This document shows, one piece after another, positions 12,860 through 55,002 of a stretch of DNA of 64,000 nucleotides. Position 1 is the stretch's first letter. Each line of letters begins with the position of its first letter. The notes beneath the pieces were generated by a model that was given only the letters and a program-made list of their open reading frames with translations, ran no database searches and was not told the origin of the DNA. This stretch comes from Malacoraja senta (Eukaryota). Both the position numbers and the translations under genes were made by a program. The stretch covers positions 5,644,001-5,708,000 of the forward strand of contig CM075990.1 of NCBI GenBank assembly GCA_038087875.1, given 5' to 3'.

Positions 12860-12973
12860 GTTTGTGAAAATCACCTTGTCAGCTAGACATGATCTCAGAG
12901 TTCACTCGAGGCTCTGTGAATAGTTACAAACTTACCATCCATAACATTCACAATATCTACCACTGTATTTCCT

Positions 12974-13158
12974 AAGTAGACACAAAATGCTGGAGTAACT
13001 CAGCGGGACAGGCAGCATCTCTGGTGAGAAGGAATGGGTGATGTTTCGGGTCGAGACCCTTCTTCAGACTTCTCCAGAGATGCTGCCTGTCCCGCCGATT
13101 TACTCCGGTATTTTGTGTCGATCTTCGATTTAAACCAACATCTGCAGTTCTTTTCTAC
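12974..13158. mobile_element. Penelope-derived fold-back element
   Basis: Inverted arms. Core on the minus strand at about 13040-13067. Direct repeat ACCACTG(T/A)ATTTCCT at 12959-12973 and 13159-13173. Confidence 0.75.
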
Positions 13159-13204
13159 ACCACTGAATTTCCTTATGGTCATCCAGTCCCCCTTCTGTGG
13201 AAGA

Positions 13205-14795: not shown

Positions 14796-14987
14796 TGTTT
14801 AAGAAGGAACTGCAGATGCTGGAAAATTGAAGGTAGACAAAAATGCTGGAGAAACTCAGCAGGTGAGGCAGCATCTATGGAGCGAAGGAAATAGGCGACG
14901 TTTCGGGTCGAGACCCTTCTTCAGACTGATGGTCTTCGCTCCATAGATGCTGCCTCACCCGCTGAGCTTCTCCAGCATTTTTGTCTA
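14796..14987. mobile_element. Penelope-derived fold-back element
   Basis: Intact core on the minus strand at 14897-14924. Direct repeat CCATTGTCAATAATA at 14774-14788 and 14988-15002. Confidence 0.75.
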
Positions 14988-16620: not shown

Positions 16621-16919
16621 CGTGGTCCCTGTAAGCAGCCTTCAAAAGGTATCCATGTTCTCCAGGGATGCTGCCTGACTCGCTGAGTTACTCCAACACT
16701 TTGTGTTCTTTTGCGTATTAACCAGTATGTGCAGTTCTTGGTGTCTATAACCCTCCATTCCCTGACAGTTCATGTGCCCATCTAGTCATCTACTATGGTA
16801 TCTGCTTCCACCAATTCTCCTCGTAGCGGATTCCAGCCACCTGTCACTCTGTGCGTGTAAAAACAAAATTACCCCGTAAATCTTTAAACTCCCCCCCCCC
16901 TAGGTGTGGACATGGTGGC

Positions 16920-17403: not shown

Positions 17404-18239
17404 GTGGGTCACCGTCCCTGCAGCCAGGCTAACCACCTGGTGATCGGAGAAATCTGATCGTGGGCGGGATGAGAACATCTATTGCAAGTACATGTGGTTG
17501 AGCAGTGGCCGACAGCTCACTCGGTGCTCGGTGTGTTCCCTGGAACCGGTGTTAGATGGGGCAACACTAAAGCTGGGCCGTTGCAGCAAAGGGTGAAGTC
17601 TTCCTCCATAGACGCTGCCTGCCACGGCTGAGTTCCTGCAGCACTTAATGTTTTGCTCAAAATTCCAGCATCTTGTGTCTTAATTGCAGCATTATTTGTG
17701 AAGGACTGCGTGGCTGACAGTACGGGGAACATGATGAGCCAACGATTCGTTTTCGCTCTGCACTTGTCAAGTTATGTTTGAGAGATCGATTTTTAGGGTC
17801 GAGTGTATAAAACCTGCGTTTATGTGTGAATTTCTCGGCAAGTGTTGTTACTGGAGTTTGCCATTAGGTGGTGCACTCGCTCTGTTTTGTAGACCAGCTG
17901 CCCCGCGAGTAACTCGGGGAATGACAATGTGATCTGTACGTTCTTGCCTTTGCCCGGTTATTTACTCCCTGTAAGCAGCCCCAGCAAAAGATGAAGCTGC
18001 ACTTGTTTCTTTCCAAAACATAATTGGCAAAAAGACTGCGGCCTTGTGGCTAAATATTTGCATTCCGTTTGGTTTGTCGCATGCAGAAAGTGACGTGAAA
18101 GGTGTGCTGGGGAACGAGTGCTGAAACGACAGACGCAGGTCAGGGGAGCGAACAGCATGATAGAATACAGAAGGTGAATGGGTCGGTGGGGTAGGAACGC
18201 TGAGGGAGAGGTGGAATGGTTGTAAGAGTGGAACAGATC

Positions 18240-20385: not shown

Positions 20386-20672
20386 AACTACAACCTGGAG
20401 TTCATCATGAAATTAAAAGAAAGATAAGTTTACATTGAAGATAGACACAAGAAGCTGGAGTAACTCAGCGGGACAGGCAGCATCTCTGGAGAGAAGGAAT
20501 GGGTGACATTTTGGGTCGAGACTCTTCTTCAGTTACATTGGTCAGGGTGCAGAGGAGTTTGAAGATGATGCCAGATGTGGGAAGTCTAAGCTCAGAGGGA
20601 AGATTGGATAGATTGAGGCTATTTAAAAAAAAAAAAAAAAAAAAGGAACAGAATTGCTTGTGGGGAAACTTT

Positions 20673-22564: not shown

Positions 22565-24129
22565 GAGCCTGGACTGAAAGGTAGACTTGAGAGAAAGGTA
22601 GAGAGAGTGAACATAAGCCCTGGGCTTGCTCCACCATTCAGTACGATCATAGTTGATCTTTAAAAAAAAAATATTACAATGATACTTGCCTCCCTTAAGA
22701 TCCTATTTCTTCATCGACTCAGTATTGTTAGGATGGCCACCCAGAAAGACACTATATTTGTTAATGGGATTAATTATCTGACAGAGTTCTGTTGGTAAGA
22801 ACTCCCTTTATCATCTTCAAATAGTATCACTTGTATGGGCTTGCAGGTGTGTTTCTTTACACTTTACTGCAATGGGATTTGGAATGCACCATCTCTGAAT
22901 CCCGCTTGGGTACTGCAAGAATGCACGTTGTAAATTGAAACAATCATTAAGCGAGGAACTGGCTTTAACATTCTCCCTCCCAAACTGTCTAAGTTTGCAA
23001 GTCCAAGCCCCACTCCAGCAACAGTATTAGAATTTGTTGTTTCCAACTCCCCCTGCATCAGGAACGTTTTCAAGCTCCTCAAGACCAAATGGAGATGGCC
23101 AATAAATGCTGGCTTTCCCAATTCAGCCCGTTTCAAGACAATTTTGTTTTTTCCAAAATCTGAACACATCATCTGCACAAATATTTAAAAGGCTGATGTA
23201 ACTCTCTTACAATGGCACCTTAAACCATGACAAAGAGGGGGTGGCAAGTGGTGGGTGAATATGGTCGAGGAGGGGTTGATTAGCAGAGGAGTCGGGTTGT
23301 GGAGGGATTGTTGGACGGAGCGCTTGGCTGGGAGGGGAATAAGTGGAGAACAAGGGGCTGCAGATTCTGGAATGTGACGGGAAAGGAAGGTAAACAATGG
23401 ACCGCATGAGGTGTGGTGGAGGCAGATAGGAACAGTGGGAGGGGAGGGGGATCCAGGGAGATAAGTGTGTGGGGTAAGGGTAAAACAGGGAGATAGAGGC
23501 ATGGGTGTGAAGGTGGGAAGAAGGGTGTGTGTGTGTGTGAGAGAACCAGGTGAGATAAGAGAAAGGGGCTGAAGGGTGCGGGTTACCTACAGTTGGAGAT
23601 TATCATTTTCATGCCGTTGGGTTGTAGACTACCCAGGAGGATTAATAGCCTCTCACACGCTCCCTTCTTTCTACCGTACTCCCCAGCCCCTATCATACTA
23701 TTTCATCCCTTTTAATTCCTTTCCCTCATCCTCCCACCTCCCCCACTACTGCTTGCACTCCCTTCCCTCTGCCACCACTCTTTATGTTCCATTCCTCACC
23801 TTCCTTTCCTATCAGAATCCACAATCTCCAGCCTTTTTCTCTCCACTAATCCTTTCCCAGTCTTGTGTCGCTATTTCTATCCTTCTCTCCGCACATGCCT
23901 GCTTTTCTGAAAAACAATCCTTCCTCACCTGTGTATCCCTATCGCTTACCAACTCTTGCCCACCCTCCCCACCACTTTACGCTGACTACCAACCCTCACC
24001 TCTTTCAGTCAAGAAGGGGTCTCAACACAAAAGGTCCATTTCCTTCCGCAGATGTAGCCTGACCTGCAGAGTTACTCCAGCTGCTCCCTGTTTCTGGCTA
24101 GATCCCCTGTATAGCAAGTAGGAATCTGC

Positions 24130-24450: not shown

Positions 24451-24837
24451 ACTAATCACAAAAATGGTTGTTTCTAGGAAAGGATATTCCAATAACTGTT
24501 TAAAAAATTATAGAATTCCAGCTGTGTTAAGACTAGTATTAACTGTAAAGCTGGAGGCTACAATGCAGAAAATGCAGTAATAAAAATATTGTCCAAATAT
24601 CCAAGGGTGCTCCCATTTGTAGGTATTTTCTTGTAAAACCAATCCCATTGGTACCTGTGGGTTTATCGTTGGTTGGACGCACTTCATTAATTGTAGCATC
24701 AGGACTCATTCAGTTTAGTGTCGCATGTACCAAGGTACAGTGAAAGGTTTTGTTATTCTGTCTTCAAAGTCCACTCCATTGACTTCGGTGGAATGATAAC
24801 GTACTTTATTGACTGTAGATTAATTTCTAGGCATATT

Positions 24838-24861
24838 ATATATATATATTATATATATAAC

Positions 24862-24919
<58 letters not shown>

Positions 24920-24920
24920 C

Positions 24921-24966
<46 letters not shown>

Positions 24967-25026: not shown

Positions 25027-25110
<84 letters not shown>
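25027..25110. repeat. (GATA)n microsatellite
   Basis: Read directly from the sequence; about 20 units. Confidence 0.98.
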
Positions 25111-25112
<2 letters not shown>

Positions 25113-25217
25113 TATGCAAGGAAGGGTGCTGTTCTGCCCATTGTGAAGATGTTGGGCATAGGTGGTCTTCAGGTTAATCCATGCCCAGTTATTGACAGAC
25201 GTTTTGTAAGTGATGGA

Positions 25218-25312
25218 AGGTAGACACAAAATGCTGGAGTAACGCAGCGGGACAGGGAGCATCTCTGGAGGGAAGGAATGGGTGACGTTTCGGGTCGAGA
25301 CCCATCTTCAGA
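25218..25312 (-). mobile_element. Penelope-derived monomeric mini-element with hammerhead-like core (25284-25311)
   Basis: About 95 bp, flanked by perfect TTGTAAGTGATGGA at 25204-25217 and 25313-25326. Confidence 0.75.
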
Positions 25313-27063
25313 TTGTAAGTGATGGATATTGAAATGGACATCCACGTACTTTGTAATTGTGGCAATCATTTCTGCCTGGACCACCCTCTCAGGATGTGAG
25401 CATGAGACCTTCATTACCAATGAGGGAAATGTTTGTCCTCGCCTTCCCTCTAATCTTCCTTCCAATTAACTTAAATGCTCCCATGGTTACTCTCCTCTCA
25501 AAGAAATATTGCAGTGCATAAGAAGATAATGCTACTTATCGTTAGTATTGATTTCCATTTAGGAGGATAGCTCATTCCTGTTCACACTTTCCAGACCTCC
25601 CATAATTTTATACAGCTTGTCCCCAGGTTTTGGCAGCTTTCCATTCCCAAGAACTGTTCGTAACCCAAACCATTTGCAAGTTGGAAATGTGGCCATGAAC
25701 CAATTTCCTGCGAGGCAGATGATGCCTATGACCCAAAGCCACTCTCCCCTTCTCCACTCTCCCCTTCCACTTATATCTCACTCTCTGGCTTTTCATTTAA
25801 TTCACCTTCTCTCCTTATTTAACATCCTTTTGCCTCCTTACTATTTCTCCATCCATCTGCCATCCCAATCCCCCCGACCATATTTGCATCCATACTTGTT
25901 AGAATTTGTATCACCCCTATCTCTCATTTTCCGCTTTCCATTATAAACCAGTCTGAAGAAGGGTCCCAATCCAAAATGTCATCTGTCCATTCCCTCCACA
26001 GATGCTGCAAGAACCACTGAGTTCCACTAGTCTTCTGCGGTTTGCTCAGCACCCAGCATCTGCAATTCCTTGGGTTTCCTGATAGCACCCTTGTTTAACT
26101 GTGCACCTACTCCAGCTCTATTGCAACCTCCTTGTGTCTTAGATTGGCATTTGGCAATGCGCACACTCCAAGTTTTGTCATGCGATGCCCTACCTTCCAC
26201 CAGAACCTGCTCCTACACTAGATACACCCACCTTCTCAGCACAGCACCTTCTGTGACCAGTTGGGCGACTCATGGCTGCAATGAGACAACTTTGATTCCC
26301 ATCGTCAGTACTGGAAAAAAAAACTAATGATCGAATATGTGCAAAAGTGCACTGGAGCGCGATCATTCATCCCTGACCTGCTGTGTTGGTAATTCTACTC
26401 ACGTCATAGATTTTGTGGAACTCGTTACTGAAAGTATTTGGTGAGGGACTACATTTTGATGGGAGTGAGCCTGTGGGGATTTGGAAGAAAAATATAATTC
26501 ATGGCCAGACACTGTTGAAGTCACTTCCGCCTCTTGCACTACTGCAGATGTGCGTCTGGAAAAGCAGACTCCTGAAGTGAATGGCACTTATCCAACTTTT
26601 GTTGCATTGCTGAATACAAATATCACACACCCAACAGCTGGTTCTATCTTGGGTTTTTTAAATTTAAGAATTTTATTAACTGCAACCAAAGATTTAACTG
26701 CTTAGGTTTACAGCAGTGTTATGATTAGCTGCTGGCTCTTGTATAAGTTGATTAAGTTGTATGACTGGAACTCGGATTTTGAAATCACTATTGTTTGCAT
26801 CCCATTGTGGGCAATGGAACATTAAAAAAAACACTAAAGGTATTTACTGCACAATGTATGTAAATCAACATTGTCCATTAATTGCATATAATCTGTTATG
26901 CAGAACATTGACAGCACGGGAACAGGCCCTTCGTCCCACATAGTCCATGCCAACCATGATGCCGTTAAACTAATCTCCTCTGCCTGAATGTTATCCATAT
27001 CCCTCCATTCCCTGCATATCCATGTGTCTCTCTCAAAAATTCTTAAATGCCAGTATCTGCCTC

Positions 27064-28839: not shown

Positions 28840-28960
28840 GTGTCTGTGTGTGTGTGTCTCTGTGTGTGTGTGTCTGTTTGTCTGTTTGTCTGTATGTCTG
28901 TGTGTCTGTGTGTCTGTGTCTGCGTCTGTCTGTGTGTGTCTGTCTGTGTGTGTCTGTCTG

Positions 28961-28991
<31 letters not shown>

Positions 28992-29388
28992 GTCTGTCTG
29001 TGTGTCTGTCTGTGTGTCTGTCTGTCTGTGTGTGTATCTGTCTGTGTGTGTGTCTGTGTGTGTGTCTGTGTGTGTCTGTCTCTCTCTGTCTCTGTCTCTG
29101 TCTGTGTCTGTGTCTGTGTCTCTGTCTGTGTCTCTGTCTGTGTCTCTGTCTGTGTCTCTGTCTGTGTCTCTGTCTGTGTCTCTGTCTGTGTCTCTGTCTG
29201 TGTCTCTGTCTGTGTCTCTGTCTGTGTCTCTGTCTGTGTCTCTGTCTGTGTCTCTGTCTGTGTCTCTGTCTGTGTCTCTGTCTGTGTCTCTGTCTGTGTC
29301 TCTGTCTGTGTCTCTGTCTGGGCCTCTGTCTGTGCCTCTGTCTGTGTCTCTGTCTGTGTCTCTGTCTGTGTCTCTGTCTGTGCCTCTG
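28840..29388. repeat. Compound (TG)/(TCTG) microsatellite grading into a 12-bp TCTGTGTCTCTG array
   Basis: Read directly from the sequence. It explains the five low-complexity ORFs here. Confidence 0.97.
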
Positions 29389-31461
29389 CATCTTGTGGTG
29401 CGTACTTCCAAGCTTTACCTTCTGCCCTAAGTTAGAGGGCATAAGAGGGAAAGACTGGGGTGAAAAGGCTCCTTGATCATGTTGGCTGCTTTGTCGAGGC
29501 ACTGCGAGTGTAGATTGAGTTGGACGGTGGGGAGGCTGATTTGTGTGACGGACTGGGCTACATCCATAACTCTGCAACATGTGGTTTTGGGCAGAGCTGT
29601 GGCCAAATCAGACTGTGGCATCCCAATAGAATGCTTTCTGTATTGCACCTGTAGCAGACATTTGGAAATGTTCCTATGAGGATAAAGATGCTGTATAAAT
29701 GCAATTGCATTTGTCTTTGAAACTGTGCACTGAGAAAGAAACTCAATATGGCACTAGGATGATTAGGTGGCAGGTGACGTGACCAAATGACCTCTGCAAC
29801 TTGATGTTATAAATTAGCTACCGGACCTGGCATTATTGTGAGACCCTGTGGAGAGCCAATGTATTACCTTGGGGTGGCGTAGTAGTACAACTGTCAAGCT
29901 GCGGCCTCACAGCTCTGGCAGCCTGGGTTCAATCCTGACCATGGGAGTTGTCGGTGCGGAATTTGTACATTCTCCCTGTAACCTTTTTTCCCCCCCGGTT
30001 GCTCCGATTTCCTCCCATGGATGGTTATTTGTCCCTGGAAATGTAAATTGCTCCCGGTGCGGTGTGGGTTGCAGGGAAACTGCTGAAGGAATGGGATTAT
30101 TTATGAACTGTCAGAGACTTGATGGGCCGATTGGCCATCTTCTACAACATATGGGTTTGAAGCAGAGAGACAGGTTGACTGTAGTGATCAGAGTAGAGAC
30201 CAGAGAGCCAGACTTGAGCCACATCAGGATTTTCCAATGAAGATAGACTTAAAATGCTGGAGTAACTCAACGGGACAGGCAGCATCTCTGGAGAGAAGGA
30301 ATGGGATTTTCTAATGGTTGAAATAAGAGGGGTAATCATCCAGGGAACTGTGGGCCAATGGAACTTGGGACCAGGAGGGAACATCAATCTTCGTCATGTG
30401 TACTTTTCCCAAAGTGGCCCCATTCCCTCTTGAACTGTGCATTAATTTCCACCAACCCTGAAACTTGAGGTACTTTCAAAGTGATCTGGTAACTGATTAG
30501 ACTGAGAACTGTCTCCATGCGTTTAGTTGCAGTAGCTGGCTAATCTATAATTCCCTTCGGAACTCGGTGATTGTGGGAACAGCTCTGGGGGATTTTCAGG
30601 GTAAGCCAGGAAATGTCAAAACCTATTTGATACCTCAGGTTACTTGAAGGATGAAAGCCAGAGTTTCTTGAGGAAGGGGTGAGGTAAAGAAATAAAATAT
30701 CATTGAACTCAGGATAAATTGTTCCATTACCCCTCCCCCTCTTACTGTATCTGCCCAAGAAAGTTTCCCATTGCCTTTGATTTTTGGTTAAGAACAAAGT
30801 TCCTTCCTCTGTGGTGCTCTTAATTTGATGACTGTGTGTTTCAGCAGGTCAGTCATTCCCATATGTGGCCCTTCACCCTCTTCAGTGAATTACCTCAGCC
30901 CTGAACAACATGAATGGGTTTCTGAAATACAATGGAGCTATTTTCTGCACAGCCTTTAGATCCTTTGGCTGATAAAATACTTTTCCTTCCCATCAAGAGT
31001 TACTATTTTCAGAAAGCGTGGCAGTTAGCTGTTAAAACTGGCACCGTCTCAGGAAACGTTTCCTGCTTTTAACGCGTCTCCTGTAGCTGTAATTCACAGA
31101 GCTGCTAGACGTCTTCTGTATCCTTTGTCACAAGAGCTGCAGATAATTCCCCTGCTCTGGGATTTCTTTGCTTTAGAACACGGCTGATTTTTGAGCTGGC
31201 CTTCGGGTTCCGCACATCACTTCAGGAAAAATGTAGAGTTGACAAGACATTTGGTCACATTCCTTCCAACGTTACGTCTCTTGAAAATGGATTTTCCCAG
31301 AGTGAAACGCAATCGCAACAATCTCTGGGCCGCTTGCCATCTTTCTGGGAACTTTGCAGAGTAAGTCGTGTTTATGCGGGCGACCCTCTTCTGGCACTGC
31401 TTGTGCACTGCGTAATGAATTCTTCATATCAGCGTCGCTCAGTGCAAGTCAGCGTAACCAA

Positions 31462-31790: not shown

Positions 31791-33453
31791 TGAAATATAG
31801 TAAATATTTTGACTGCTCCACTGCAAAATCTCCTCAAGGGATGCCTAATTTGAAGAAGTTCTCCTCCTCTCTCCGGTAGTTCTATGAGACCCTCACTCAC
31901 TGCTCCCCCCCTGTGATTCCTGCGAATCCCCCCCCCCCCCTCCGATCTCTGGCCTTTGTTCGATCCATCTGCCCAGCAATCCCCCCCACTTCTCGCCTAC
32001 ATCCACATTACCTGCCGCTCTGTGTTCTGTCTCTCTATCCTTCTGGCATTCTTCTCCTGCGCCTCGTCCCCCACAATCAGTATGAAGAAGGGTCTTGACC
32101 CAAAATGTCACCTGTCCATGTGCTCCAGGGACACTGCCTAACCCACTGAGTTACTCCAGCACTTTGTGTCCTTTTATTGTAATGCTGTTGGTCTCACATT
32201 TACAAGGACACTTTCACTCTGACTGCATCTTCTGAAGTTTGTACACAAAGGGTTAACTGATCGTGGTAAACTCTGCTCATAATAACCATTAAGACTCCTT
32301 CTATTGCTTTGAGCAATTGGAAACTACTTGTAATGGGTGTCTGTACCATGACTGCAGTTGCTGGAACATGGCTAAATGCATTAAAGGGGTCACAGGCATG
32401 CATGGTGTAGAAGTGCTCACTTGTGCCCAGGGAGTTAACAAGGAGCTGTAAAAACAGATATGGGCATCACATTGCACGATTGACTGATGTCCTCAGTATA
32501 CTCTGGCCAATTGCTTTCACGATTAGGTAGTTTTCATGCAACCTGCTCAAGGTATTGATTGTGATGTGCATCATGCTAACTGCATTGTAAAATGCAGCCA
32601 TAAGCAAGGGCATTCTAAATCTGAACTTGTCAGCATTAATTACAACTAGTGGTTCCAGGGAGTTGGTTTTGTAACTGGGGTAGATACCGGCTGTTACACA
32701 GAAAGGGGGTTTGACTTGGGGAAGCAATAGCAGATATCAGGGCACGGTAGAGAGTAGGGTCTAAGCGTTTTGGGAATTGCATTGGGTGGAGGAGAATGAT
32801 GGTAAGAAGGTCAGTTCCATGAAATGGATGCTGCTTCAACCAGTGAATGAATCATTTCCAGTCACTTATGGAAATGTCACATGTAAAATATTATAACAAA
32901 TCAGCAAAGAAGCTTTGGAATGAAATAAACTGAATCTTCGTTTAACTCAAAATTTGGCAGAGGAGAGATACAGAAAATGATCAAGAGTGTGTTTGTACCA
33001 ATTTAAATGGGCAAAGTGAGATCCTTTGTCCCATGTAATAGTGACTGTCCTTCTCAAGTAATCTCCTAATTAGAAACTATATGGAACTTCAGAGCATAGG
33101 TGTTCAGTAAATGCAACTTTTGTACATGCAACTAATTTTGTTTTCATCAACAATTGACTGAATAGAGCTGTCAGATCTGAGGTCATCCAGGAAGCATATA
33201 TTTAACATAATGGAGGAATTAGAAGGAAGATGGAGAAGATTATTTTCAGGAGGAGGGTCAGGAATCTGGAACTGGCTCAAGGAATGTTTAGTGGAAACGG
33301 AAACCTCAAAACGTTCAAGCATTTCAAAGAGCTGTGTCCATCTCTGGATCAAGTGCCCGAAGGTGAGATGAGGGAACCCTCTCATTTCTGATACTGATCT
33401 AATTCGTGGAATAACCTTCATTTCAGTGTTGCTGAATCTGTGGAATAATATGT

Positions 33454-33637
33454 TTAAGAAGGAACTGCAAATGCTGGAAAATCGAAGGTAGACAAAAATG
33501 CTGGAGAAACTCAGCGGGTGAGGCAGCATCTATGGAGCGAAGGAAATGGGCAACGTTTCAGACCCAAAACGTTGCCTATTTCCTTCACTCCATAGATGCT
33601 GCCTCACGCGCTGAGTTTCTCCAGCATTTTTGTCTAC
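33454..33637. mobile_element. Penelope-derived fold-back element (hammerhead centre deleted)
   Basis: Inverted arms. Direct repeat CTGTGG(A/G)ATAATATGT at 33438-33453 and 33638-33653. Confidence 0.75.
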
Positions 33638-33899
33638 CTGTGGGATAATATGTACAGTTTACTTATGAACTGACTGACTGGTCTTGGTGAAAGGAAATAA
33701 AGTTACCAGAATAACAGTCTCGAGTCCAACGGAGTTTGCCCTTTGTCCTTGATGGCTTTTCCCTGGTACAAGGCCTCCGACCATTGTTGATCACATTCTT
33801 ATTATTAATTCTACACACATGTTGCCAATGAAACAGCAGGAGTGTTGTGAATTTGCTGCCAGCTTTCCGACCAGTTTCTTCCATTTCTCAGAATGTGGG

Positions 33900-34480: not shown

Positions 34481-35754
34481 AATGTATAACTCTCCCCACT
34501 GACCTTTGGGAAACCTTGAGCTATGATTTTTGTGATATCTTTGTCAACCTTGAATCCCCTCATTGGGAGAATTTGGAAGTGGTGGAAGAGATACACCATC
34601 TACATGCCCTGTCGATAACTCCCTGCTTCACCTATGGCAGAGTCTGCTCATTTCAATGGAGGGACTGTTGGTTTCTGGATGAAGGGGAGGGTAGAGATAG
34701 AGACGGCAACTAGAAGGTGATAAATGGGGACAAAAGGCTGTGGATGCAATAATGTGGTGAGGAAGGAAGGAAGATGACAAATGGAACCAGATCGGGGGGG
34801 CCAGATCGAACTAGTTAAGGCAGGGGCTAAACAATGCCTTGACAATGACCATGTGTAAAGGATATGTTGCTTGATGTTTGTGTTTATAATGTTACTCGCA
34901 GAAGTGGGGCTACACAGGATTCGGAACCTTACTCTTTAAAGTGCATATCTGTGTCTTATGCAGACATGATAAACAAGTTGATGATTTAAAACAGACAATA
35001 GGAGCAGAATTAAGATATTTGGTCCATCAAGTCTGCTCCACCATTCAATCATAGTTGATCTATATTTCCCCCTCAACCCCATTCTACTATCTTCTCCCTG
35101 TGACCTTTACTAATCCAGAATCTATTAATATCCACTTTAAAAATACCCAATGACTTGTCCTTCCCCGCCATCTATGACAATGAATTCCACAGATTGACCA
35201 CCCTCTGGCTAAAGAAATTTGTCTTCATCTCCATTCTAAAAGTATGTCCTTTTATTCTGAAACTGTGCCCTCTGGTCCTAGACTTTCCCACTACTGGAAA
35301 CATCTACTAAAATTGTGGTTAAAAATGTGTTGGAATGTTTTAGACAAGAAGATCCAGATTGTCAGACTAACTAGGTGGAAAGTGGCAAATGGAATGTTAA
35401 TCAAAATCATGCACTCGGGGAAATGGGTTATGTGAAGGGAGTAGACAATAAATGGGAGGTTGTTGAGAGTTGGAGAATTAATAGGAATTTGGAGTGCATG
35501 TCTGCAGACCCTTAAAGATCCACAGGTCCAAAAACTGATGAAAAATACACACAGATTTTCCATTATTAGTTTCATTATTAGTAGGCATTAAATATAGAAC
35601 CAAAATATTATACTGGAACTGTGCATGTTAACTAAGCTACAAGGTGTGAGATGCACACAGTTCTGGTCATCACATGACAGGGAAAATGTGATTCAATTTG
35701 AGATAATGTTATCGGCAATGAACGGTTTTATCTAGAAAGAAACATGAGATAAGG

Positions 35755-35846
35755 TCTGAAGAAGGGTCTCGACCTGAAACGTCACCTATTCCTTCGCTCC
35801 ATAGATGCTGCCTCACCCGCTGAGTTTCTCCATCATTTTTGTCTAC
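35755..35846 (+). mobile_element. Penelope-derived monomeric mini-element with hammerhead-like core (35756-35783)
   Basis: 92 bp, flanked by perfect CATGAGATAAGG at 35743-35754 and 35847-35858. Confidence 0.75.
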
Positions 35847-37304
35847 CATGAGATAAGGAAGGGTCGTTTGCTTTGAAACAATTAAAATGAGGAATAAGGT
35901 GTTAAAATTATGAAGAGCCTTGATATAGTAAGGAGGAAATAAATCTCCCACAGGAAGGGGGAAGAACCAGGAGTCGTTATTGGTTGTAGGATTAGAAGAT
36001 AGGTGAAAAACATTGTCTCCCACCCTCGCCCCCCCCCCCCCCAAGAGTATTTTTGCAGAAACAACTATCAGTATTAAAAATTATTTGGACGTTGACTTGA
36101 AGATCTACAGACTTGGTGGCATTAGGATGGCAAGCTTTTTATGACCAGAAACAAATGTGATGGGCCGAATGGTCTCCTGTGCTGTGAGGTATCTGTAATC
36201 CTATAATCATTATAGTTTCATGAGTCATACAGAATGGAACCGGGGGCCGTCAGCCCACCAAGTTTATATTGACTACCAACAGAACCTTTTCACACTAACC
36301 TGACAGTCATCTCACTTTGTTCTCCCCATATTCCCACCAACTCCTACCATTCACCCACATACAGTGGACAATTTATAGCGACTAATACATTTACCAGCCC
36401 ACACAACTTTATGTTGGATTTTATCCAGGCAATCACAATGAGAATGTGCAAAGTCTTTACAGACTGTATTCAAGGTCAGGATTGAACCTAGGTCATTGGA
36501 GATGTAATGCGATAGCACTAATAGCTGCGCCTTTGCCATGATCATAGTTTTCAGGAAATTATCAGTCTTTTAATAAGGCGAGAATGAATGAACATCGGAA
36601 TACTTCAGAGGATCTCTGATTTTGGAAAAGGCGAATCCTGCCTAGCACACAGTGAGTTATTTTGATGGAGGATGTCTCGAGATATTACTTACATGGACCT
36701 CCATAGGATATTTGATATAGTCCCCCATAAAAGATTTAATTCAATCTAAAGCTCATGAAATTGCAGGTAAATCATTGACCCAGCTGGGATAATGACTGAA
36801 TTCCAGGAGCCAGTGAAGGAATAATGTACAGTTACCAATCAGAATATGTCTGGTAAAGTCCAATAAAAAGATTCTGTACTGGATTTACAAAATATTCACT
36901 CTATTTAATGAAGACTCAACTGATATTGAAACAGATTATACAATGGCATAAAGATTAAGTAAAGTACAAAGGGAAACATTTAACTACAGAGATATTATTA
37001 AGTTAATTAGTAAAGAAGGAAATTGCAAGATTGAGTCGTAAAAATAAGTAATGGAAAGAGACTTGACAGTCCTTGTAAACTGATGATTAAAATCTCAAAC
37101 AGAAGAAACAATGGCAGTCTCAAACATCCCGGTTTTCAATTCTGCTTGTAAGTCCTCGGTGAAGTTTAAACTTTAATGAACAATTTATATGGAATGTAGA
37201 GCATCCATTCTAGCAGTTCCATTGGAGATGTTGATCTGAAAGTAAATTGGAAATTGATCTCTCACTAATTTTGTACGACTTGGGAAAATGACTTCTGATC
37301 CAGA

Positions 37305-37615
37305 TAGCCTTTCTGTCTGAGGGCTCCTCCATTGTCAGCTAAACTCAAATTGGAGGAGCAGCATCTCATATTTTGCTTGGGCAGCTTACAGCCCAGTGGT
37401 ATGAATATTGATTTCTCTCACTTCAGGTAGCCCCGGCATTCCCTCTCCCTCTATCCCACCCCCACCCAAGTCGCACCAGCGTCTCATTTTCACCCCACAA
37501 ACAGCTAACAATGGCCTGTTTCCTTTATCATCGTTATTTTTTGGCATATCTTTCATTCATTGTTCTTTATCTGTCCACATCGCTGTCTATCTCCCATTTC
37601 CCTTATTCCCTAGGT
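37305..37615 (+). mobile_element. Penelope-like GIY-YIG 3' fragment
   Basis: Aligns to 5280-5640 and 8740-8870. Confidence 0.75.
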
Positions 37616-38085: not shown

Positions 38086-41021
38086 CTAGTCCCATCTACC
38101 TGCACTCAGACCATAACCCTCCATTCCTTTCCCGTCCATATACCCATCCAATCTATTTTTAAAGGATAACATCGAACCTGCCTCCACCACTTCCACTGGA
38201 AGCTCATTGCACACAGCTACCACTCTCTGAGTAAAGAAGTTCCCCCTAATGTTCCCCCTAAACTTCTGTCCCTTAATTCTCAAGGGTCTTAATTGAATCT
38301 TCCCTACTCTCAATGGGAAAAGCTTATCCACGTCCACTCTGTCTAACCCGCTCATAATTTTAAAGACCTCTATCAAGTCCCCTCTTAACCTTCTGCGCTC
38401 CAAAGAATAAAGACCTAACTTGTTCAACCTTTCTCTGTAACTTAGTTGCTGAAACCCAGGCAACATTCTAGTAAATCTCCTCTGTACTCTCTCTATTTTG
38501 TTGACATCCTTCCTATAATTAGGCGACCAAAATTGTACTCCATACTCCAGAATTGGCCTCACCAATGCCTTGTACAATTTTAACATTACATCCCAACTTC
38601 TATATTCAATGCTCTGATTTATAAAGGCCAGCACACCAAAAGCGTTCTTTACCACCCTATCTACATGAGATTCCACCTTCAGGGAACTATGCACAGTTAT
38701 TCCTAGATCCCTCTGTTCAACTGCATTCCTCAATTCGCTACCATTTACCGTGTACGTCCTATTTTGATTTGTCCTGCCGAGATGTAGCACCTCACATTTG
38801 TCAGCATTAAACTCCATCTGCCATCTTTCAGCCCACTCTTCCAAATGGCCTAAATCTCTCTGTAGACTTTGAAAATCTACTTCATTATCCACAACACCAC
38901 CTATCTTAGTATCATCTGCATACTTACTAATCCAATTTTCCACACCTTCATCCAGATCATTGATGTACATGACAAACAACAGTGGACCCAACACAGACCC
39001 CTGAGGCACCCCACTAGTCACCGGCCTCCAACCTGACAAACAGCCATCCACCATTACTCTCTGGCATCTCCCATTCAGCCACTGTTGAATCCATCTTGCT
39101 ACTCCACCATTAATACCCAACAATCGAATCTTCTTAACCAACCTTCCATGAGGAACCTTGTCAAAGGCCTTCCTGAAGTCCATATAGACAACATCCACTG
39201 CTTTACCCTCATCAATTTCCCTAGTAACCTCTTCGAAAAATTCAAGAAGATTAGTCAAGCATGACCTTCCAGGCACAAATCCATGTTGACTGTTCCTAAT
39301 CAGACCCTGCTTATCCAGATGCTTATATATATTATCTTTAAGTATCCTTTCCATTAATTTGCCCACCACTGACGTCAAACTAACAGGTCTATAATTGCTA
39401 GGTTTACTCTTCGAACCCTTTTTAAACGGAACAACATGCGCAGTACGCCAATCCTCCGGCACTATTCCCGTTTCTAATGACATTTGAAATATTTCTGTCA
39501 TAGCCCCTGCTATTTCTACACTAACTTCCCTCAATGTCCCAGGGAATATCCTGTCAGGACCTGGAGACTTATCCGTTTTCATATTTTTCAAAAGTGTCCG
39601 CACCTCCTCTTCTTTGAATCTCACAGTTTCCATTGCTACTCTGCTCGTTTCCCTTACCTCACATAATTCCATATCCTTCTCCTTCGTGAATACCGAAGAA
39701 AAGAAATTGTTCAATATCTCCCCCATCTCTTTTGGCTCTGCAGATAGCTGTCCACTCTGACTCTCTAATGGACCGATTTTATTCCTTGTTATCCTTTTGC
39801 TATTAATATAGCTGTAGAAACCCTTTGGATTTACTTTCACCTTACTTGCCAAAGCAACCTCATATCTTCTTTTAGCTTTTCTAATTTCTTTCTTAATATT
39901 CTTTTTACATTCTTTATACTCCTCAAGCACCTCATTTACTCCATGCTGCCTATAATTATTGTAGATCTCTCTCTTTTTCCGAACCGTGTCCAATTTCCCT
40001 TGAAAACCATGGCTCTTTCCATTTTTTTACTATTTCCTTTCAACCGAACAGGGACATAAAGATTCTGTACTCTTAAAATTTCACCCTTAAATGTCCTCCA
40101 TTTTTCTTCTACATCCTTCCCATAAAACAACATGTCCCAATTCACTCCTTTTAAATCCTTTCGCATCTCCTCAAAGTTAGCCTTTCTCCAAACAAAAATC
40201 TCAACCCTAGGTCCAGTTCTGACCCTCTCCATAATTATATTGAAACTAATGGTATTGTGATCACTGGACCCGAAGTGCTCCCCGACGCATACCTCCGCCA
40301 CTTGCCCTGTCTCATTTCCTAACAGGAGGTCCAGCACTGCCCCTTCTCTAGTAGGTACCTCTATGTATTGCTGCAAAAAACTATCTTGCACACATTTTAC
40401 AAACTCCAAACCATCCAGCCCATTTACAGAATGTGTTTCCCAGTCTATGTGTGGAAAATTGAAATCTCCCACAATCACTACCTTGTGCTTACTACTAATA
40501 TCTGCTATCTCCTTACATATTTGCTCTTCCAATTCTCGCTTCCCATTTGGCGGTCTATAATACACCCCTATAAGTGTTGCTACACCTTTCCCATTTCTCA
40601 GTTCCACCCAAATAGCCTCCCTAGACGAGCCCTCTAATCTATCCTGCCAAAGCACTGCTGTAATATCTTCCTTGACAAGCAATGCAACACCCCCACCTCT
40701 TGCCCCTCCAATTCTATCACCCCTGAAGCAACGAAATCCTGGAATATTTATTTGCCAATCACAGCCCTCCTGCAACCATGTTTCACTGATCGCCACAACA
40801 TCATACTTCCAGGTGTCAATCCAGGCTCTAAGCTCATCCACCTTTCTTACAATGCTCCTAGCATTAAAATATACACATTTAAGAAACCCACCACCACTTA
40901 TTCTCTGTTTATTATCTTTTTCTTCTTTCTCCCCTACATTTTGGGTCCGAGTGCTTCCCTTCTCTGCCTCCTGCCTCCCACATTTTCCACTAGCTTTCTC
41001 TATTTGAGTCCCTCCCCCCAA
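38086..41021 (-). pseudogene. CR1 ORF2 (APE endonuclease plus reverse transcriptase), frameshifted near 39985-40030
   Basis: APE motifs: YFNARS, ISETWL, GDFN, LDL, SDH. RT motifs: PGPD, YRPVSLTS, QHGF, DF.KAFD, GVPQGSVLGP, YADD. Split into ORFs 39936-41021 and 38086-39993. Confidence 0.93.
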
Positions 41022-41026
41022 CCGTT

Positions 41027-41411
41027 CTAGTTTAAAGTCTCCCCAGTAGCCTTTGCAAATCTCCCCGCCAGGATATTGGTGCCCCTCGGGTTCAAGTGCA
41101 ACCCGTCCTTTCTGTACAGGTCACTCCTTCCCCAAAAGAAATCCCAATGATCCAGAAATTTGAATCCCTGCCCGCTGCACCAGTTCCTCAGCCACGCATT
41201 TATCCTCCACCTCACTCCATTCCTACTCTCACCGTCACGTGGCACAGGTAGTAATCCTGAGATTGTTACCTTTGTAGACCTTCTCCTTAACTCTCCTCCC
41301 AACTCCCTAAATTCTCCTTTCAAGACCTCTTCTCTTTTTCTACCTATGTCATTGGTACCTATATGTACCACAACCTCAGGCTCCTCTCCCTCCGATTTCA
41401 GGATATCTTGG
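41027..41411 (-). pseudogene. CR1 ORF1 C-terminal SGNH/GDSL esterase-like fragment
   Basis: VHIGTND...DGLHLN motifs, typical of CR1 ORF1 esterases. Confidence 0.85.
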
Positions 41412-41862
41412 ATATGAAGAAAGACTGGATAGACTCGGCTTGTACTCGCTGGAATTTAGAAGATTGAGGGGGGATCTTATAGAAACGTACAAAATTCTTA
41501 AGGGGTTGGACAGGCTAGATGGAAGAAGATTGTTCCCGATGTTGGGGAAGTCCAGAACAAGGGGTCACGGTTTAAGGATAAGGGGGAAGTCTTTTAGGAC
41601 CGAGATAAGAAAAAAAATGTTCACACAGAGAGTGGTGAATCTGTGGAATTCTCTGCCACAGAAAGTAGTTGAGGCCAGTTCATTGGCTATATTTAAGAGG
41701 GAGTTAGATGTGGCCCTTGTGGCTAAAGGGTTCAGGGGATATGGAGAGAAGGCAGGTACAGGATACTGAGTTGGATGATCAGCCATGATCATTTTGAATG
41801 GCGGTGCAGGCTGTATGGCCTACTCCTGCACCTGTTTTCTATGTTTCTGTGTTTCTATGTTT
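41412..41862 (+). mobile_element. Host CR1 fragment, right part (RT C-terminus and 3' tail)
   Basis: YEERLDRLGLYSLEFRRLRGDLIETYKI...FTQRVVNLWNSLP and a (TTTCTATG)n tail. Confidence 0.9.
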
Positions 41863-42987: not shown

Positions 42988-43266
42988 ATTTAAGAAAGAA
43001 CTGCAGATGCTGGAAAAACGAAGGTAGACAAAAAATGCTGGAGAAACTCAGCGGTTGAGGGAGCATCTATGGAGAGAAGGAATAGGCGACGTTTTGGGTC
43101 GAGACCCTTCTTCAGACTGATGGGGGGGGGTTGGGAAAAAGAAAGGAAGAAGCGGAGACAGTAGGACTAGAAGGAGAGCAGGGGAGGAGGGAGAAGACAA
43201 GGGCTATCTAAAATTAGAGAAGTCAATGTTGATACCGCTGGGGTGTAGACTACCCAAGCGAAATAC
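42988..43266 (-). mobile_element. Penelope-like 3' fragment nested in the hAT element
   Basis: Reverse complement of the GIY-YIG C-terminus plus terminal repeat, with a decayed core at about 43088-43115. Confidence 0.8.
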
Positions 43267-43319
43267 CCAAGCTTGTCTCCTCACTACAGTTTCTGCTGGC
43301 TCCAGTCGCAAATCTGAGT

Positions 43320-44485
43320 TTGAGTGAACTGTGCAAGGCATTCATTGATGCTGGAATTCCACTGTGGAAATTGGAAAACAAATCTCAGATTTTTTTAGAG
43401 AAATACACAGAGGAACATATACCAAGCGAGTCATCATTATGGAAACATTATGTTGACAGCAACTTCAACATTGTTGTGCAGAAAATTAGAGATGAAGTTG
43501 CATGCAACAAAATATGGATCTCAATAGGCGAGACAACCGATGCTGTGGTGAGATATGTTGCCAATGTGGTCATCGATAAACTGGAGACAGGTCAACCATC
43601 AAAGGAGTATTTGTTGACATCGGAAGTATTGGAGAAGTCAAACCACTCAGCTATTGCTCAGTTGTTTACATCTTCACTTGCTGTTCTTTGGCCAGAAGGT
43701 ATAAAACACAAGAATGTTCTGTGACAGTTTTATTCCCCAAAATGTTGCATTTGACATGCTTAGCTTAAGGACTTCATAGAAATGCCAAGCACAGACGTAG
43801 CTTGTTTCCAAATGTCGATCGCCTAGTTGCCAATGTCAAGAAAATCTTCCTTAAAATACTGTCACGTTTGCAGTTGTTCAAGGAAATGACATCCGAGATT
43901 CCGCTACATCCTCAGCCCCTTTTGACTAGGTGGGGTACATGGCTCTCTGCTGTACTCTACTATGTTGCACATTTTAAAAAGATAAAAAAAATCATCAACT
44001 GTTTTGAAGAAGAAGAAGAATCTGCTACAGTCAGGATCGTCAGTGAAATCATGCAGAAAAAGTCCCTACACAGCGATCTTGTGTTTATTGCTTCCAATTT
44101 TGCAAACTTCTCACAAGCTACCACTTCCCTTGAGAAACGTGGCGAAACATTAGTGAATAACTTGTAGGTTTTCAACAAAGTAACTGACGATATTCGTAAA
44201 GTTCTTGGCGATGTAGATAAAGACATACAAGGAAAATGTGAGAGAGTGATTTTAGCTAACAAAGATCTTGAAGAAATACAATACATAGCTAAAGTTCTCA
44301 AAGGTAGTTGTAATGCACAAGATATCAACATGAATATAGAGTCGGTAGCTTGTTTCGGGTATGCACCAGTGACCTCAGCTGGGGTGGAAAGAAGATTTTC
44401 ACAACTGAAGCATATTCTGTCTGACAGACAGCATAGTTTAACACCAGATGATTGAAAAAAATGCTAGTAATTATGTACAACCAGG
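43320..44485 (+). pseudogene. Disrupted hAT transposase (CGGBP/DUF659-like)
   Basis: LCKAFIDAGIPLWKLEN..., IWISI(G)ETTD..RYVANVV, HLTCLA, TRWGTW and PVTSA.VER.FSQLKHILSDR (hATC-like). Broken by stops and frameshifts. Confidence 0.85.
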
Positions 44486-47875: not shown

Positions 47876-49062
47876 CATAACTGAACAGTTAGCTACATTA
47901 GTAGTAGCCTGTTGTCGCCCCAGTCCATGGAAAATTTCGGGTCTCTTATTTCAGAACCAGATGTTGGCTTAAAAAAAAAAAGTGGTAAATATGTGGTTTT
48001 TTTTAAATTTGATGTTATGTGTCTCCTCATGAAATCCATGGATCTCCTGGTGTTTTATAAATGATGTGTTATTGAAGAAATACAAACATTGTTGTAAGCA
48101 TAAATGTGGTTTAAAAAAAATTGAAGGCCAGTCAACCTAAAAATTCTGCTGTGAAAGACAATGATTGGGTGTTATATGATTACATTTCCGTGAAGTCATT
48201 TTCACCAAGATTGTGGACTTTACATGAGTGTGGTCGGATGCTTCTTCAGCATGGAACGTGAGCCTGGACTCCAGTTTTGTTGATTTTGTTCCCCCCCTCC
48301 CCCCCCCTGTCGTGCCTTGTAATTGGCAAGGGACACTTGGAACCAGACCTGTACCTCATATGAGGCCTGTGTACATAGGTGGCAGACTGTTGGGAAGCCA
48401 CCTTAACCTCACATTCATGTATCCTGTTGCTCTGGTCCTTTCCCATTGCTTCCACCTGTTGTGACTCCCAACACTCCACCTCCAAATTGATCGCGAACCA
48501 AACACTTGCTCCCTCCAATTGCTCGCCCTTCCTTCACCGCATTATGGTCGATGTTAGAGTTGTCGGGTAATAGTCACTGAAACAGATCACTTTACTTAAG
48601 GGCAGGAACGATGGAGGTTTCCTTGAATCCAACGGGGAGGGGAGATTGGAACACCATAGGTGTTTGTCATGTATATCTATGGGGTACTGTACTCATGTTG
48701 ATGCCTCACATGGAAGCTGGGAGAGCAGCAATTAGTTGGTGTCAAAAGTCAATGAGAGTCAGTGGGATGTGACTTTGGAAGTGGTGAACAATGCCCACCC
48801 AGTATATTAGTCATTTAGTCATGTGCTCAAGAGCTCATTTCTATCCTGGTATATTTTACAGTGCTTATGACAGTGTGATCATGAGTCCCATTATCCTGAG
48901 TGGGGCCTGCATCTGGACATGCTACCTGACCGAGTTTGCACTTGGGAATGTTATCAAAAATTAATTCAACAATCCAAGATTCATAACAGTTTGGGTATAG
49001 TTTAAGCAGTTAATGTGTCCAATCTTTTTTTCTTGCTTCCAACCCAACACTTCTTTCTGGGT

Positions 49063-49266
49063 AGACACAAAACGCTGGAGTACCTCAGCGGGACAGGCAG
49101 CATCTCTGGAGAGAAAGGAATGGGTGGCGTTTTGGGTCCAGAAGAAGGGTCTCGACCTGAAACATCACCCATTCCTTGTCTTCAGAGATGCTGCCTGTCC
49201 CGCTGAGTTACTCCAGCTTTTTGTGTCTACCTTCAGTTTAAACCAGCATCTGCAGTTCCTTCTAAC
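49063..49266. mobile_element. Penelope-derived fold-back element
   Basis: Inverted arms. Direct repeat ACAC(T/C)TCTTTCTGGGT at 49047-49062 and 49267-49282. Confidence 0.75.
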
Positions 49267-50899
49267 ACACCTCTTTCTGGGTCTTGACATAAAACAACGA
49301 CCATTCCTTTCCTTCTATAAATGCTGCTTGACCTGCTGAGTTCATCCTACAATTAGTTTTTGTTCCAGGTTGCAACATCTGGCGTTTCTTGTGCCCCACT
49401 TGCTTTCAAGGGAAGATTTCCCATATAATTATGAACCAAGATTAATGAACAGAAGTTATGATATCAGCCTTGATGGCGTTAAGCCATACAATTAGAGTTG
49501 AAAGTACAGTTGATCTGTTTTCTCGTCAGTGCACTCCACAGTATTGAGATCATTTAATGGTACATTAAGATTGTGCAATTTAGCATATGGTGGAAATGAT
49601 ATCATTTATTCATAAATGAAGAGAGGTGGTTAGTACAACACTGTAACTGGTACAGAATTACACTGAGGAAAAAAAGGCCTCCCACTCTTTGAGTTTAGGT
49701 TTAGCTTTATTATTGTCACACGTACCAATGTACAGTGAGAATCTCATACACTCCACCAACTAGAAGGAAAAAGCATCAGCAGCTCTGGGAAAAACCATCA
49801 CTTCTAATTGTCAAAACATATCTGTATTTAAATAAATGTACAGAATAAAGTCTGGAGAAGTAAGGCATTCATAAATGGAAGACTGGTCTGTGGGGTGGTA
49901 CTCTACAGCTTGGATGGAACTAATTCCTAGGTAAACTTTAGTGATTACATAAACCACTTGGCTAAAACCATCTTGACCAAGACTCCATGTTGGTGAAGTT
50001 GTAGTTTTCTGAAATCTATTCTGCTCAATGCACTGCATTGAAAGAATGCAAACATTACAAAGTTATTCCACAGATAGTCTAAAAATCCCCACAGGGACTG
50101 ACTACTTAATTGCAGTGGGAACAGGAGACTGTTACTATTACTGCATATAATGTCCTGGTTGATAACCACATCAGCAGACGATCACTTCAGAGCCAATGTT
50201 GATCCCAATGGGAGATGTGTTTTATTTCATAAGCCAAATATATGAGAATTGACGTGACTCCAGTGAGTAAAATGCACGTGATGGAGCCAAGATCCTTTCC
50301 ATTTCATAGCTGGACACTTCCACTATGGAAGCTGGTCTCCATAGGTGTTGTAGTTGAGCCAAAAAGACTCAACAAAGGCATTTACATAATATTTCAGTCA
50401 CAACTAAACACTATACACTAGTGGACCAACTACATAATAACATGTAAACTCTAAACAAACATGCATTTGACCAAGAGTCCAGCGAACTGGAATTGTCCTC
50501 CTTTTTTTACATGTAAGGGAAAGTGCTTAACTGGAACCGAGACGGCTAGCGGTAGAAGATTGATTGGAAGGGAATGGTGAGTGTTGTGTGACCCTATCAA
50601 GGCTTAGGCCTGGTGATCAGAGTATCAGGACTAGCTGGTGGGGTGGGATGGTCGATGTGTATCAGCAATCGGAGGACCTCGAGTGGAGATAAGAATATCA
50701 CCAATCAGACATTTGATGCCAGGGGTGGAATGGTAATGCAAAAGTGGAAATCAGGGAATTGGGCCAGGGAGGAGGGAGGAGGGTGAAGTTCAGTATTGGG
50801 AATTATAAAAACATTTGATAAAATTCAGCCTTGTTGAATTAATTGCAACTAAGTTGTAAAACGGTGTGCTAAATCTTAATTACTGCTGAATACCTCTAA

Positions 50900-51149: not shown

Positions 51150-51186
51150 TAACTCTGCAAACAATACTAAGTTTGGAATATAATTT

Positions 51187-51408
51187 GTTCAAGAAGGAAC
51201 TGCAGATGCTGGAAAATCGAAGGTAGACAAAAGTGCTGGAGAGGCTCAGCGGGTGCGGCAGCATCTATGGAGCGAAGGAAATAGGCAACGTTTTGGGCCG
51301 AAACCCTTCTTCGGACTGAAGAAGGGTTTCGGCCCGAAACGTTGCCTATCTCCTTCGCTCCTTAGATGCTGCCGCACCCACTGAGATTCTGCAGCACTTT
51401 TGTCTACC
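51187..51408. mobile_element. Penelope-derived fold-back element with two divergent hammerhead-like cores
   Basis: About 95 bp inverted arms centred near 51314. Direct repeat TTGGAAT(A/G)TAATTT at 51173-51186 and 51409-51422. Confidence 0.8.
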
Positions 51409-52117
51409 TTGGAATGTAATTTCCTCAGTATTATTCCAAATTTTTATTTTGATGTATTTGCACGATATTTAATCCACTATGTGATGGAGCCTTAATTTAA
51501 ATAGAATGTAATATCATCCCTGATTTTAAATGTATGTTTTGATCATTTTTTAAAAAATGTCTAAAATTCCCAGTTTGATCTGATATTTCAACACAATTGT
51601 TCGGTTTTTCAACTTGAAACAGAATTAGTTTACATTAAATGATCACACTATGGTAATTGTTAGCTTGTGGATGAATTACTACTTGTAAAATCCCTTCACT
51701 CTCTGTAACCTGGGTATGGAAAACAATTAGGTGGTAAGTTATAGTGGCCTCTTCACCCACAACTCCCAAATTCTAATAAATAACAACGTGCTTCTTTGGC
51801 AACAGTGTTTGGTTTCTGTTTCATATAAATTTGCAGGAAACCAATATAACCCACTCCCACTTCAGCTAGACTGTGGTGCATTTATACTCCGGCAATGTCT
51901 TAAAAATACTACTTTACAAAATCATTGAAACAGTTCCTGTTTAAAAAAAAAGAACCTTGTGAGGTTAAATTGTGGCTTCATTTGAAATGTTGTTCAATCT
52001 AAGAGGATTTTCAGTCTGAAAACAATTGTACTCTTTTATATATAAACGCAGAGCCAGTTATTCTTTTATCAAGTTATTTCGCAACCTCCTGGGTTGTCTT
52101 GTATATCGTTATGTTTA

Positions 52118-54960: not shown

Positions 54961-55000
<40 letters not shown>
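54960..55000. repeat. (TAT)n microsatellite (probable retroelement tail)
   Basis: Read directly from the sequence. Confidence 0.9.

Positions 55001-55002
<2 letters not shown>

Follow-up and report, generated by a model that had tools for sequence, protein, structure and literature searches.

Short insertions of the ribozyme-bearing end of Penelope-like elements in the skate Malacoraja senta

Introduction

Penelope-like elements (PLEs) end in pseudo-long terminal repeats (pLTRs), and the combination of an inverted pLTR with a tail at one end only is already described for them (PMC8557442, PMC3846280; here and below, published work is cited from the parts of each source that were available). 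In vitro, a PLE protein carries out extension on each of the two nicked strands, and its two internal start sites correspond to the genomic tail (PMC11167929). For this one full-length protein studied in vitro, the second-strand steps were left untested, as far as the available part of that paper goes. Dispersed and paired hammerhead ribozymes have been interpreted as truncated PLEs (PMC4209133), and non-LTR retrozymes have been reported in one chondrichthyan (PMC7761336; bioRxiv 10.64898/2026.07.22.740005). Here, we analyse 64 kb of Malacoraja senta CM075990.1 (the window, to which all locus counts are confined) and its repeats of 60–220 bp. These repeats are the ribozyme-bearing pLTR ends of ordinary PLEs. 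The short copies are not one family, and each was most likely made afresh from the RNA of an autonomous element, because a single clade is rejected, the copies fall into two subfamilies that both include coding copies, and all junctions differ. A sequence-only reading of this stretch had proposed an undescribed mobile system, which it mostly is not, the copies matching known PLE end anatomy. The same reading was right that they are PLE termini, probably inserted by a PLE reverse transcriptase (RT) and GIY-YIG protein that makes a staggered cut of about 12–17 nt.

Results

Each repeated unit, or arm, is numbered from the T of TCTGAAGA, which is +1. An arm consists of a minimal hammerhead motif (+2 to +29), about 65 further bases and an optional tail of about 38 bp. 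In PLE terms it corresponds to the end with the pLTR, where the following tandem unit begins, and not to a 3′ untranslated region (UTR) (PMC2377424, PMC11167929). The focal monomer (35755–35846, forward strand) belongs to subfamily A, aligns from +1 to +93 and has no tail. A pattern match places its minimal type I hammerhead at 35756–35783 (+), with the CUGAAGA core, the bulged A, stem II and GAAAC–GUC in the layout of PMC4209133, and the cut is predicted after 35783 (+29). The monomer is flanked by an exact 12 bp target-site duplication (TSD; left copy 35743–35754, right copy 35847–35858, both +). The hammerhead core pattern is intact in 5 of 14 copies and decayed in the others. Stem II pairing is 83%, with no compensatory changes and no excess of pairing over shuffles, and folding of the arms gave z-scores from +0.84 to −1.63, none significant. 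A scan against Rfam returned no hammerhead match; its 16 matches were all under the gathering score and mostly microRNA families on the palindromes. The palindromic copy at 51279–51351 scores 48 bits against mir-722 (gathering 81), and other copies match plant microRNA models. Palindromic copies of this kind mimic MITEs (miniature inverted-repeat transposable elements) and microRNA hairpins, with a risk of mis-annotation.

The TSD-flanked copies comprise four monomers and seven head-to-head inverted pairs. Seven of the nine copies first listed are such pairs and not single termini. The two monomers said to begin at the CTGAAGA core do so, 35755–35846 and 25218–25312 both starting at the T that precedes it. 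The latter (subfamily B, +1 to +95, reverse strand) has a perfect 14 bp TSD (25204–25326). Two further monomers of subfamily B, also on the reverse strand, lie at 20438–20532 (+2 to +96, with an exact 8 bp repeat at both ends, 20430–20540) and at 30240–30303 (64 bp, with a 13 bp TSD, 30227–30316). Three monomers therefore share a nearly equal span (+1/+1/+2 to +93/+95/+96). Their starts lie about 28 nt upstream of the predicted ribozyme cut; that of the fourth, 30240–30303, lies at about +31 to +34, just past it.

Inverted pairs of subfamily A are located at 4741–4997 (arms −6 to +95 and +32 to +130, short junction insert, 17 bp TSD), 14773–15002 (−7 to +137 and +39 to +91, 15–16 bp TSD), 33438–33653 (about +20 to +127 and +17 to +93, 16 bp TSD) and 51173–51422 (a near-perfect palindrome with arms to +129 and +94, 14 bp TSD). 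Those of subfamily B are located at 12959–13173 (−2 to +95 and +43 to +127, 15 bp TSD), 49047–49282 (about +13 to +91 and +4 to +129, 16 bp TSD) and 61837–61980 (about +17 to +91 and +86 to +132, 15 bp TSD). No two of the seven junctions agree (about −6/+32, where there is an insert, −2/+43, −7/+39, +20/+17, +13/+4, −4/+2 and +17/+86). At the 51173 junction there is a 4 nt self-complementary overlap at the core. The insert of the 4741 pair (4858–4881) carries short matches to the core start and resembles inserts templated during end-joining repair. In 21 arms the 3′ ends cluster in two zones, +91 to +96 and +127 to +137, and the coding copies that contain the core end in the same zones (+92, +127 and +130). 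These two ends agree with the pair of internal RT start sites demonstrated in vitro for an Anolis element (PMC11167929). Every inverted pair joins one short, tail-less arm to one long, tailed arm (7 of 7), an outcome expected once in 128 if the ends were drawn independently at even odds.

By position and statistics, the duplications are true-looking TSDs. Nine copies had been said to sit each between its own direct repeat, and all nine pairs were confirmed in place and length, four perfect (14774, 25204, 35743 and 61837) and five with one internal mismatch (4741, 12959, 33438, 49047 and 51173). A tenth, the 13 bp repeat of the 30227/30304 monomer, had been missed; an eleventh locus has the exact 8 bp repeat flush with both monomer ends (20430/20533, chance 0.3%). 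With boundaries set from homology alone, 10 of the 24 repeat loci have a direct repeat of at least 12 nt at both ends, as compared to 0.8% of 1500 random boundary pairs of the same spacing (at least 12 nt, at most one mismatch, ±12 nt). TSD lengths are 12–17 bp, with one of 8. Their AT content is 70%, against 57% in the window.

The arms sort into subfamilies A and B and a set of older relatives, and A and B each include GIY-YIG-coding copies. The tree has 25 rows, omitting the two shortest arms, the 9901 pair and three decayed copies. The branch of subfamily A has support of 97/98. In the approximately unbiased test (p-AU), a single clade of all 15 short arms is rejected (3.3e-5), as is a clade of the two monomers 35755–35846 and 25218–25312 (0.0015), which fall in different subfamilies. 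Short and long copies are mixed in two subfamilies at the resolution of the window, an outcome that the sequence-only reading had itself named as speaking against a separate family. No tandem array of the unit is present in the window among 18 tandem-repeat rows, and neither a tRNA-like head nor an Rfam head was found on the copies. Antisense to subfamily B, A-box- and B-box-like motifs lie 42 nt apart with two mismatches in total (1.4% of random 95-mers), judged against what we take to be the consensus boxes. The coding copy 5170 scores equal to the subfamily B copies, and subfamily A, including the focal copy, scores worse (three mismatches, 8% by chance).

The 5′ ends crowd at −7 to +2. Taking the longest arm at each of the 24 loci, with ends placed by eye, eight stop between +39 and +3 (1.1% per nt). 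Sixteen extend to +2, and 10 of these end no more than 9 nt further on (p = 2e-7). The excess persists without the two old and two palindromic copies (6 of 12, p = 4e-4). For three monomers the start does not depend on the alignment, because the TSD abuts +1, +1 and +2. The start at the core is thus non-random, as had been claimed, and the breakpoints are not the random ones that would have spoken for simple truncation. Pure random truncation falls short as a sole account. The short 3′ ends overlap the first TSD bases by 1–4 nt (at least 2 nt in 7 of 10), with a sum of 18 nt over 10 ends against a null mean of 3.5 (p = 1e-5). This suggests brief pairing between primer and RNA.

Contigs from sequencing runs were mapped with a coding copy (8562–9102 region) as reference; depth is not copy number and was not used as such. 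In run X18, flagged as probably DNA, at least 25 contigs diverge from the reference at −2 and continue into dissimilar flanks (among the 24 of 1955 loose ends listed), and in run X3 at least 279 leave it at the tail end, among those listed. Run X24 contributed 106 contigs. Further loose ends occur at 8987, where the consensus is lost just before the T; these were left uncounted, since reference mismatches select such contigs. The 15 joints listed, of 231, include none that is spliced from the region of the stop codon to +1, which speaks neither for nor against splicing.

The motif YYAGTCT at the core start is conserved in A, B and one older copy. It fits what we take to be the initiator consensus, with the A at −2. 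It could equally well represent a 3′ splice site that follows a pyrimidine tract. In Drosophila virilis Penelope an intron ends at the same ribozyme position, on the 5′ side of helix I (PMC4209133). The stop at the core start would most likely be run-off at the 5′ end of the RNA, and a protein roadblock at a 3′ splice site would be a close alternative.

Three truncated copies link the arms to coding sequence. The copy at 8562–9102 (+, subfamily A) begins in the GIY-YIG coding end (stop codon 8866–8868) and continues through a pyrimidine-rich 3′ UTR, the core at 8965 and the tail; it has no clear TSD. The copy at 5170–5732 (+, B) comprises the end of the GIY-YIG domain, the 3′ UTR and the core at 5641, with no tail, and the copy at 42990–43284 (−, A) the last codons of the open reading frame (ORF), the 3′ UTR, the core at 43116 and the tail. 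A TSD was looked for at both and not found. All three are truncated at the 5′ side. At 37303–37612 (+), a B-type ORF end and 3′ UTR stop 1–6 nt before the core, with no arm and no clear TSD, a 3′ stop that mirrors the start of the monomers. It could mark an RNA 3′ end at the core start, or a deletion. The arm sequence had been described as the 3′ end of GIY-YIG fragments, and it does end 8562–9102 and 5170–5732 (51–64% identity by tblastn). Pfam GIY-YIG was matched in the 8545 copy only (E = 2.4e-4, 21.8 bits, just below the 22.6 cut-off). Searched with tblastn, the window yields endonuclease-end pieces only, with no RT part and no full or two-pLTR copy.

The claim that the short copies have no coding sequence is unproven. 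The translation of one arm, as a possible ORF start, gave no match in a protein search, but in the PLEs studied the first ORF codons fall in this stretch (PMC11167929, PMC3846280). A zebra shark gene model (P0004) reads through into the pLTR (...SLMKGLRPKRQ, as compared to SLKKGLDPKRH in the window). At the position where AAG stands in the skate core, that of the shark likely has ATG.

The nearest proteins are from Leucoraja (70–79% identity), followed by rays and sharks, and homologues at 55–64% identity over the endonuclease carry RT motifs. The CX2-5CxxC zinc-finger linker is present in homologues P0002–P0005 and P0007; the window fragments begin downstream of it. Neptune elements have this linker, and Penelope and Poseidon are without it (PMC8557442). 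From the linker of its homologues, the skate PLE likely belongs to the Neptune clade; a Poseidon label was dropped on the same criterion. The features of endonuclease-bearing (EN+) PLEs seen here are the GIY-YIG endonuclease at the ORF C-terminus, the hammerhead motif in the pLTR, and the inverted pLTR with a one-ended tail of 30–40 bp (7 of 7 pairs). Pattern scans of two metagenome collections, one prokaryote and one viral collection, and a protein-based viral scan returned no loci.

Older and more diverged relatives are located at 3156–3241, 9865–10062 (palindromic), 11924–12046, 15845–15916, 16650–16737, 17600–17673, 24011–24082, 25918–26071, 32069–32172 and 49279–49342. An older tailed monomer, 11900–12058, starts at −1 and has a possible decayed 12 bp TSD (two mismatches), with a run of ten A between the left TSD copy and the core. 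Among the neighbouring features is a near-intact but frameshifted long interspersed element (LINE) at 38086–41455 (−), with a GDSL esterase ORF1 piece, an AP endonuclease and an RT, which by its layout we take to be CR1-like. A 157 aa frame at 16095–16568 (−) resembles the C-terminal end of a LINE ORF and has a weak ALKBH8_N match. Two adjacent open frames at 43233–44167 (+; 163 and 132 aa) have no Pfam match and resemble a broken DNA-transposon gene; the PLE copy at 42990–43284 overlaps their start. A 550 bp array with a 12 bp unit lies at 28840–29388, and further microsatellites at 24833–24965, 25027–25112 and 54961–55001.

Discussion

We regard it as probable that the ribozyme-bearing end of a skate PLE, likely of the Neptune clade and in two subfamilies, was inserted here in short form, and that each insertion was likely made afresh from coding-element RNA by the element's own RT and GIY-YIG endonuclease, with no short master. 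The endonuclease would nick both strands about 15 nt apart in AT-rich DNA, giving rise to the TSD. Reverse transcription would then begin at either of two positions within the RNA, separated by about 38 nt, and a few primer–RNA pairs would set the precise start base. Use of a single nick and a stop at the hammerhead start would give the monomer of 92–96 bp. If both nicks were used, with one start site each, two short cDNAs would meet head to head and be joined end to end via small overlaps, a number of which fall in the ribozyme region's palindromes. The enzymatic steps of this scheme are modelled on the Anolis protein; the ends, junctions and relationships were observed.

Several points weigh against this account. 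The three core-containing coding copies show no clear TSD. The in vitro work was done on a Poseidon element, whose start site is reported to be non-homologous to the cut DNA (PMC11167929). Within A or within B, a clade of short copies only stays unrejected (p-AU 0.077 and 0.31), and the power of the tree is therefore limited: about 95–130 alignment columns offer little, and 15 of 22 branches are open. The 5′ ends were placed by eye, and the choice of the 9 nt zone followed inspection of the data. Two arms extend to −6 and −7, beyond the initiator A at −2. Lastly, a joint from +43 to −2 has a depth of 993 in run X2, where single pieces have 27–57, and is similar in X3 (X2 and X3 are runs of two organisms); it could be a repeated junction, that is, a small amplified master. 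As observed in these two runs, the joint leads from +43 back to −2/−3 (reference 8962–9007) and would fit either an inversion like that of the 12959 pair or a 45 bp ribozyme tandem.

The repeated joint is one of the observations that would suit one or two non-autonomous families with their own masters, resembling short interspersed elements (SINEs) or retrozymes, served in trans by the PLE protein and perhaps transcribed antisense by RNA polymerase III. Such an origin, proposed by the sequence-only reading except for the antisense transcription, is unlikely. The unrejected clades within subfamilies would agree with it, and non-autonomous PLE derivatives and trans-mobilisation of pLTRs do exist (PMC8557442; PMC3846280; bioRxiv 2026.07.22.740005). 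The nearly equal span of three monomers is what a master would produce, but the monomers in question are divided between subfamilies (p 0.0015). Copies of a master would inherit its junction, yet none recurs among seven, and the structure of an inverted pLTR with one tail is already published. The coding copy 5170 matches the box-like motifs antisense to subfamily B just as well, while subfamily A does so less well, no tRNA-like head or tandem array is present, and three of the four monomers retain the whole core and do not start at the ribozyme cut. A tandem retrozyme was excluded by the lack of a head-to-tail array in the window and by monomers not bounded by the cut site, and a MITE was rejected as TSD length varies, junctions differ and the arms are PLE ends.

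It is improbable that the short copies are left over from full insertions (inverted pLTR, pLTR, ORF, pLTR) that lost their middle by recombination between direct pLTRs, as in solo LTRs. This would leave the same end structure within the same TSD, and recombination or deletion has been suggested for rotifer solo pLTRs (PMC3846280). The direct repeats, however, would span only 46–130 bp (the 61837 arm covers +86 to +132), the window holds no full or two-pLTR copy, and several of the rotifer solo pLTRs lack TSDs (PMC3846280). Ordinary 5′ truncation, with the crowding put down to small-sample noise or poor alignment in the variable pyrimidine-rich UTR, is very improbable as the whole explanation. 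PLEs typically show strong 5′ truncation (PMC8557442, PMC8969392), and the sample is 16 arms, two old copies having an uncertain UTR; against this stand the TSDs that fix three monomer starts irrespective of alignment, and the excess that survives removal of the old and palindromic copies. Self-priming of one strand, as in the antisense-template model of Arkhipova et al. (2013), would account for inverted pairs without two primed cDNAs. The 51173 and 9901 junctions lie on a palindrome, a cDNA of +1 to +45 folds back weakly (−2.6 to −5.3 kcal/mol), and three second arms begin at +32 to +43. A fold-back copy, however, cannot exceed its template at the 3′ end, while in 4741 and 12959 the core-reaching arm lacks the tail and the other arm has it. 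Folding of the arms gave no significant z-score, and we hold this origin to be highly improbable.

A more specific form of the scheme in which copies are made afresh can be offered only tentatively, and we think it somewhat doubtful. Starting in the 5′ pLTR of the same transcript, at +92 or +130, the RT would run off the RNA 5′ end at the hammerhead start and leave a strong-stop cDNA of fixed length. This cDNA would be inserted alone (monomer), be paired with a cDNA from the other nick and the other start (inverted pair), or jump to the RNA 3′ end (pseudo-LTR tandem). If this is true, skate genomes hold a very large fossil record of each step.

Although the element itself is an ordinary PLE, the finding bears on how PLEs form pseudo-LTRs, inverted ends and tails. 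There are 11 TSD-bounded short copies in 64 kb, and about 92,600 and 115,600 contigs match the coding-copy reference in two DNA-sized runs. At such density of short copies, a single genome assembly would yield thousands of complete insertion events, exposing three rules to test: one start site per strand, short primer–RNA pairing and a stop at the ribozyme start. A literature search (Repbase, Dfam and subscription journals being outside its scope) found no account of these skate copies, and none of a 5′ stop at the hammerhead or of target overlap at the short ends, both of them seen in this single window. The 5′ step may already be visible in the coverage of genomic copies given in Supplementary Fig. 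S2 of PMC11167929.

Comparison with described elements

Metazoan PLEs carry minimal hammerheads (Cervera and de la Pena 2014, PMC4209133) that resemble the skate copies in occurring as thousands of dispersed single motifs and as close pairs on opposite strands; in the available part of that work there is no TSD or breakpoint analysis and no cartilaginous fish is named. Non-LTR retrozymes (PMC7761336; bioRxiv 10.64898/2026.07.22.740005) are likewise non-coding, carry a type I hammerhead and are related to PLE pLTRs. They form head-to-tail tandems and circular RNA units that run from cut site to cut site, whereas the skate copies are single or head to head and do not end at the cut site.

Penelope of Adineta vaga (Arkhipova et al. 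2013, PMC3846280) has inverted pLTRs, palindromic junctions and a tail on one pLTR, as well as TSDs, solo pLTRs and action in trans on pLTR-bearing RNA. Its TSDs are 8–10 bp, as compared to mostly 12–17 bp in the skate, and several of its solo pLTRs are without TSDs, unlike the skate copies. The Poseidon element PAc of Anolis (Frangieh et al. 2024, PMC11167929) shares two adjacent RT starts downstream of the hammerhead, AT-rich targets, cutting and extension of both strands and uncleaved RNA as template. It belongs to another clade and has an ATG inside the core where the skate has CTGAAGA, and its start site is reported to have no homology to the cut DNA, whereas the skate short ends share 1–4 nt. 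The EN+ PLEs of the Neptune clade (Craig et al. 2021, PMC8557442) have in common with the skate element a C-terminal GIY-YIG domain with CCHH motif, the CX2-5CxxC linker that the nearest homologues (P0002 and P0003) also have, a hammerhead in the pLTR, an inverted 5′-truncated copy and a one-ended tail of 30–40 bp. The available part of that paper makes no statement that we found of a preferred 5′ stop at the ribozyme. The skate copies differ from the Neptune elements described there in that most of the insertions are termini alone.

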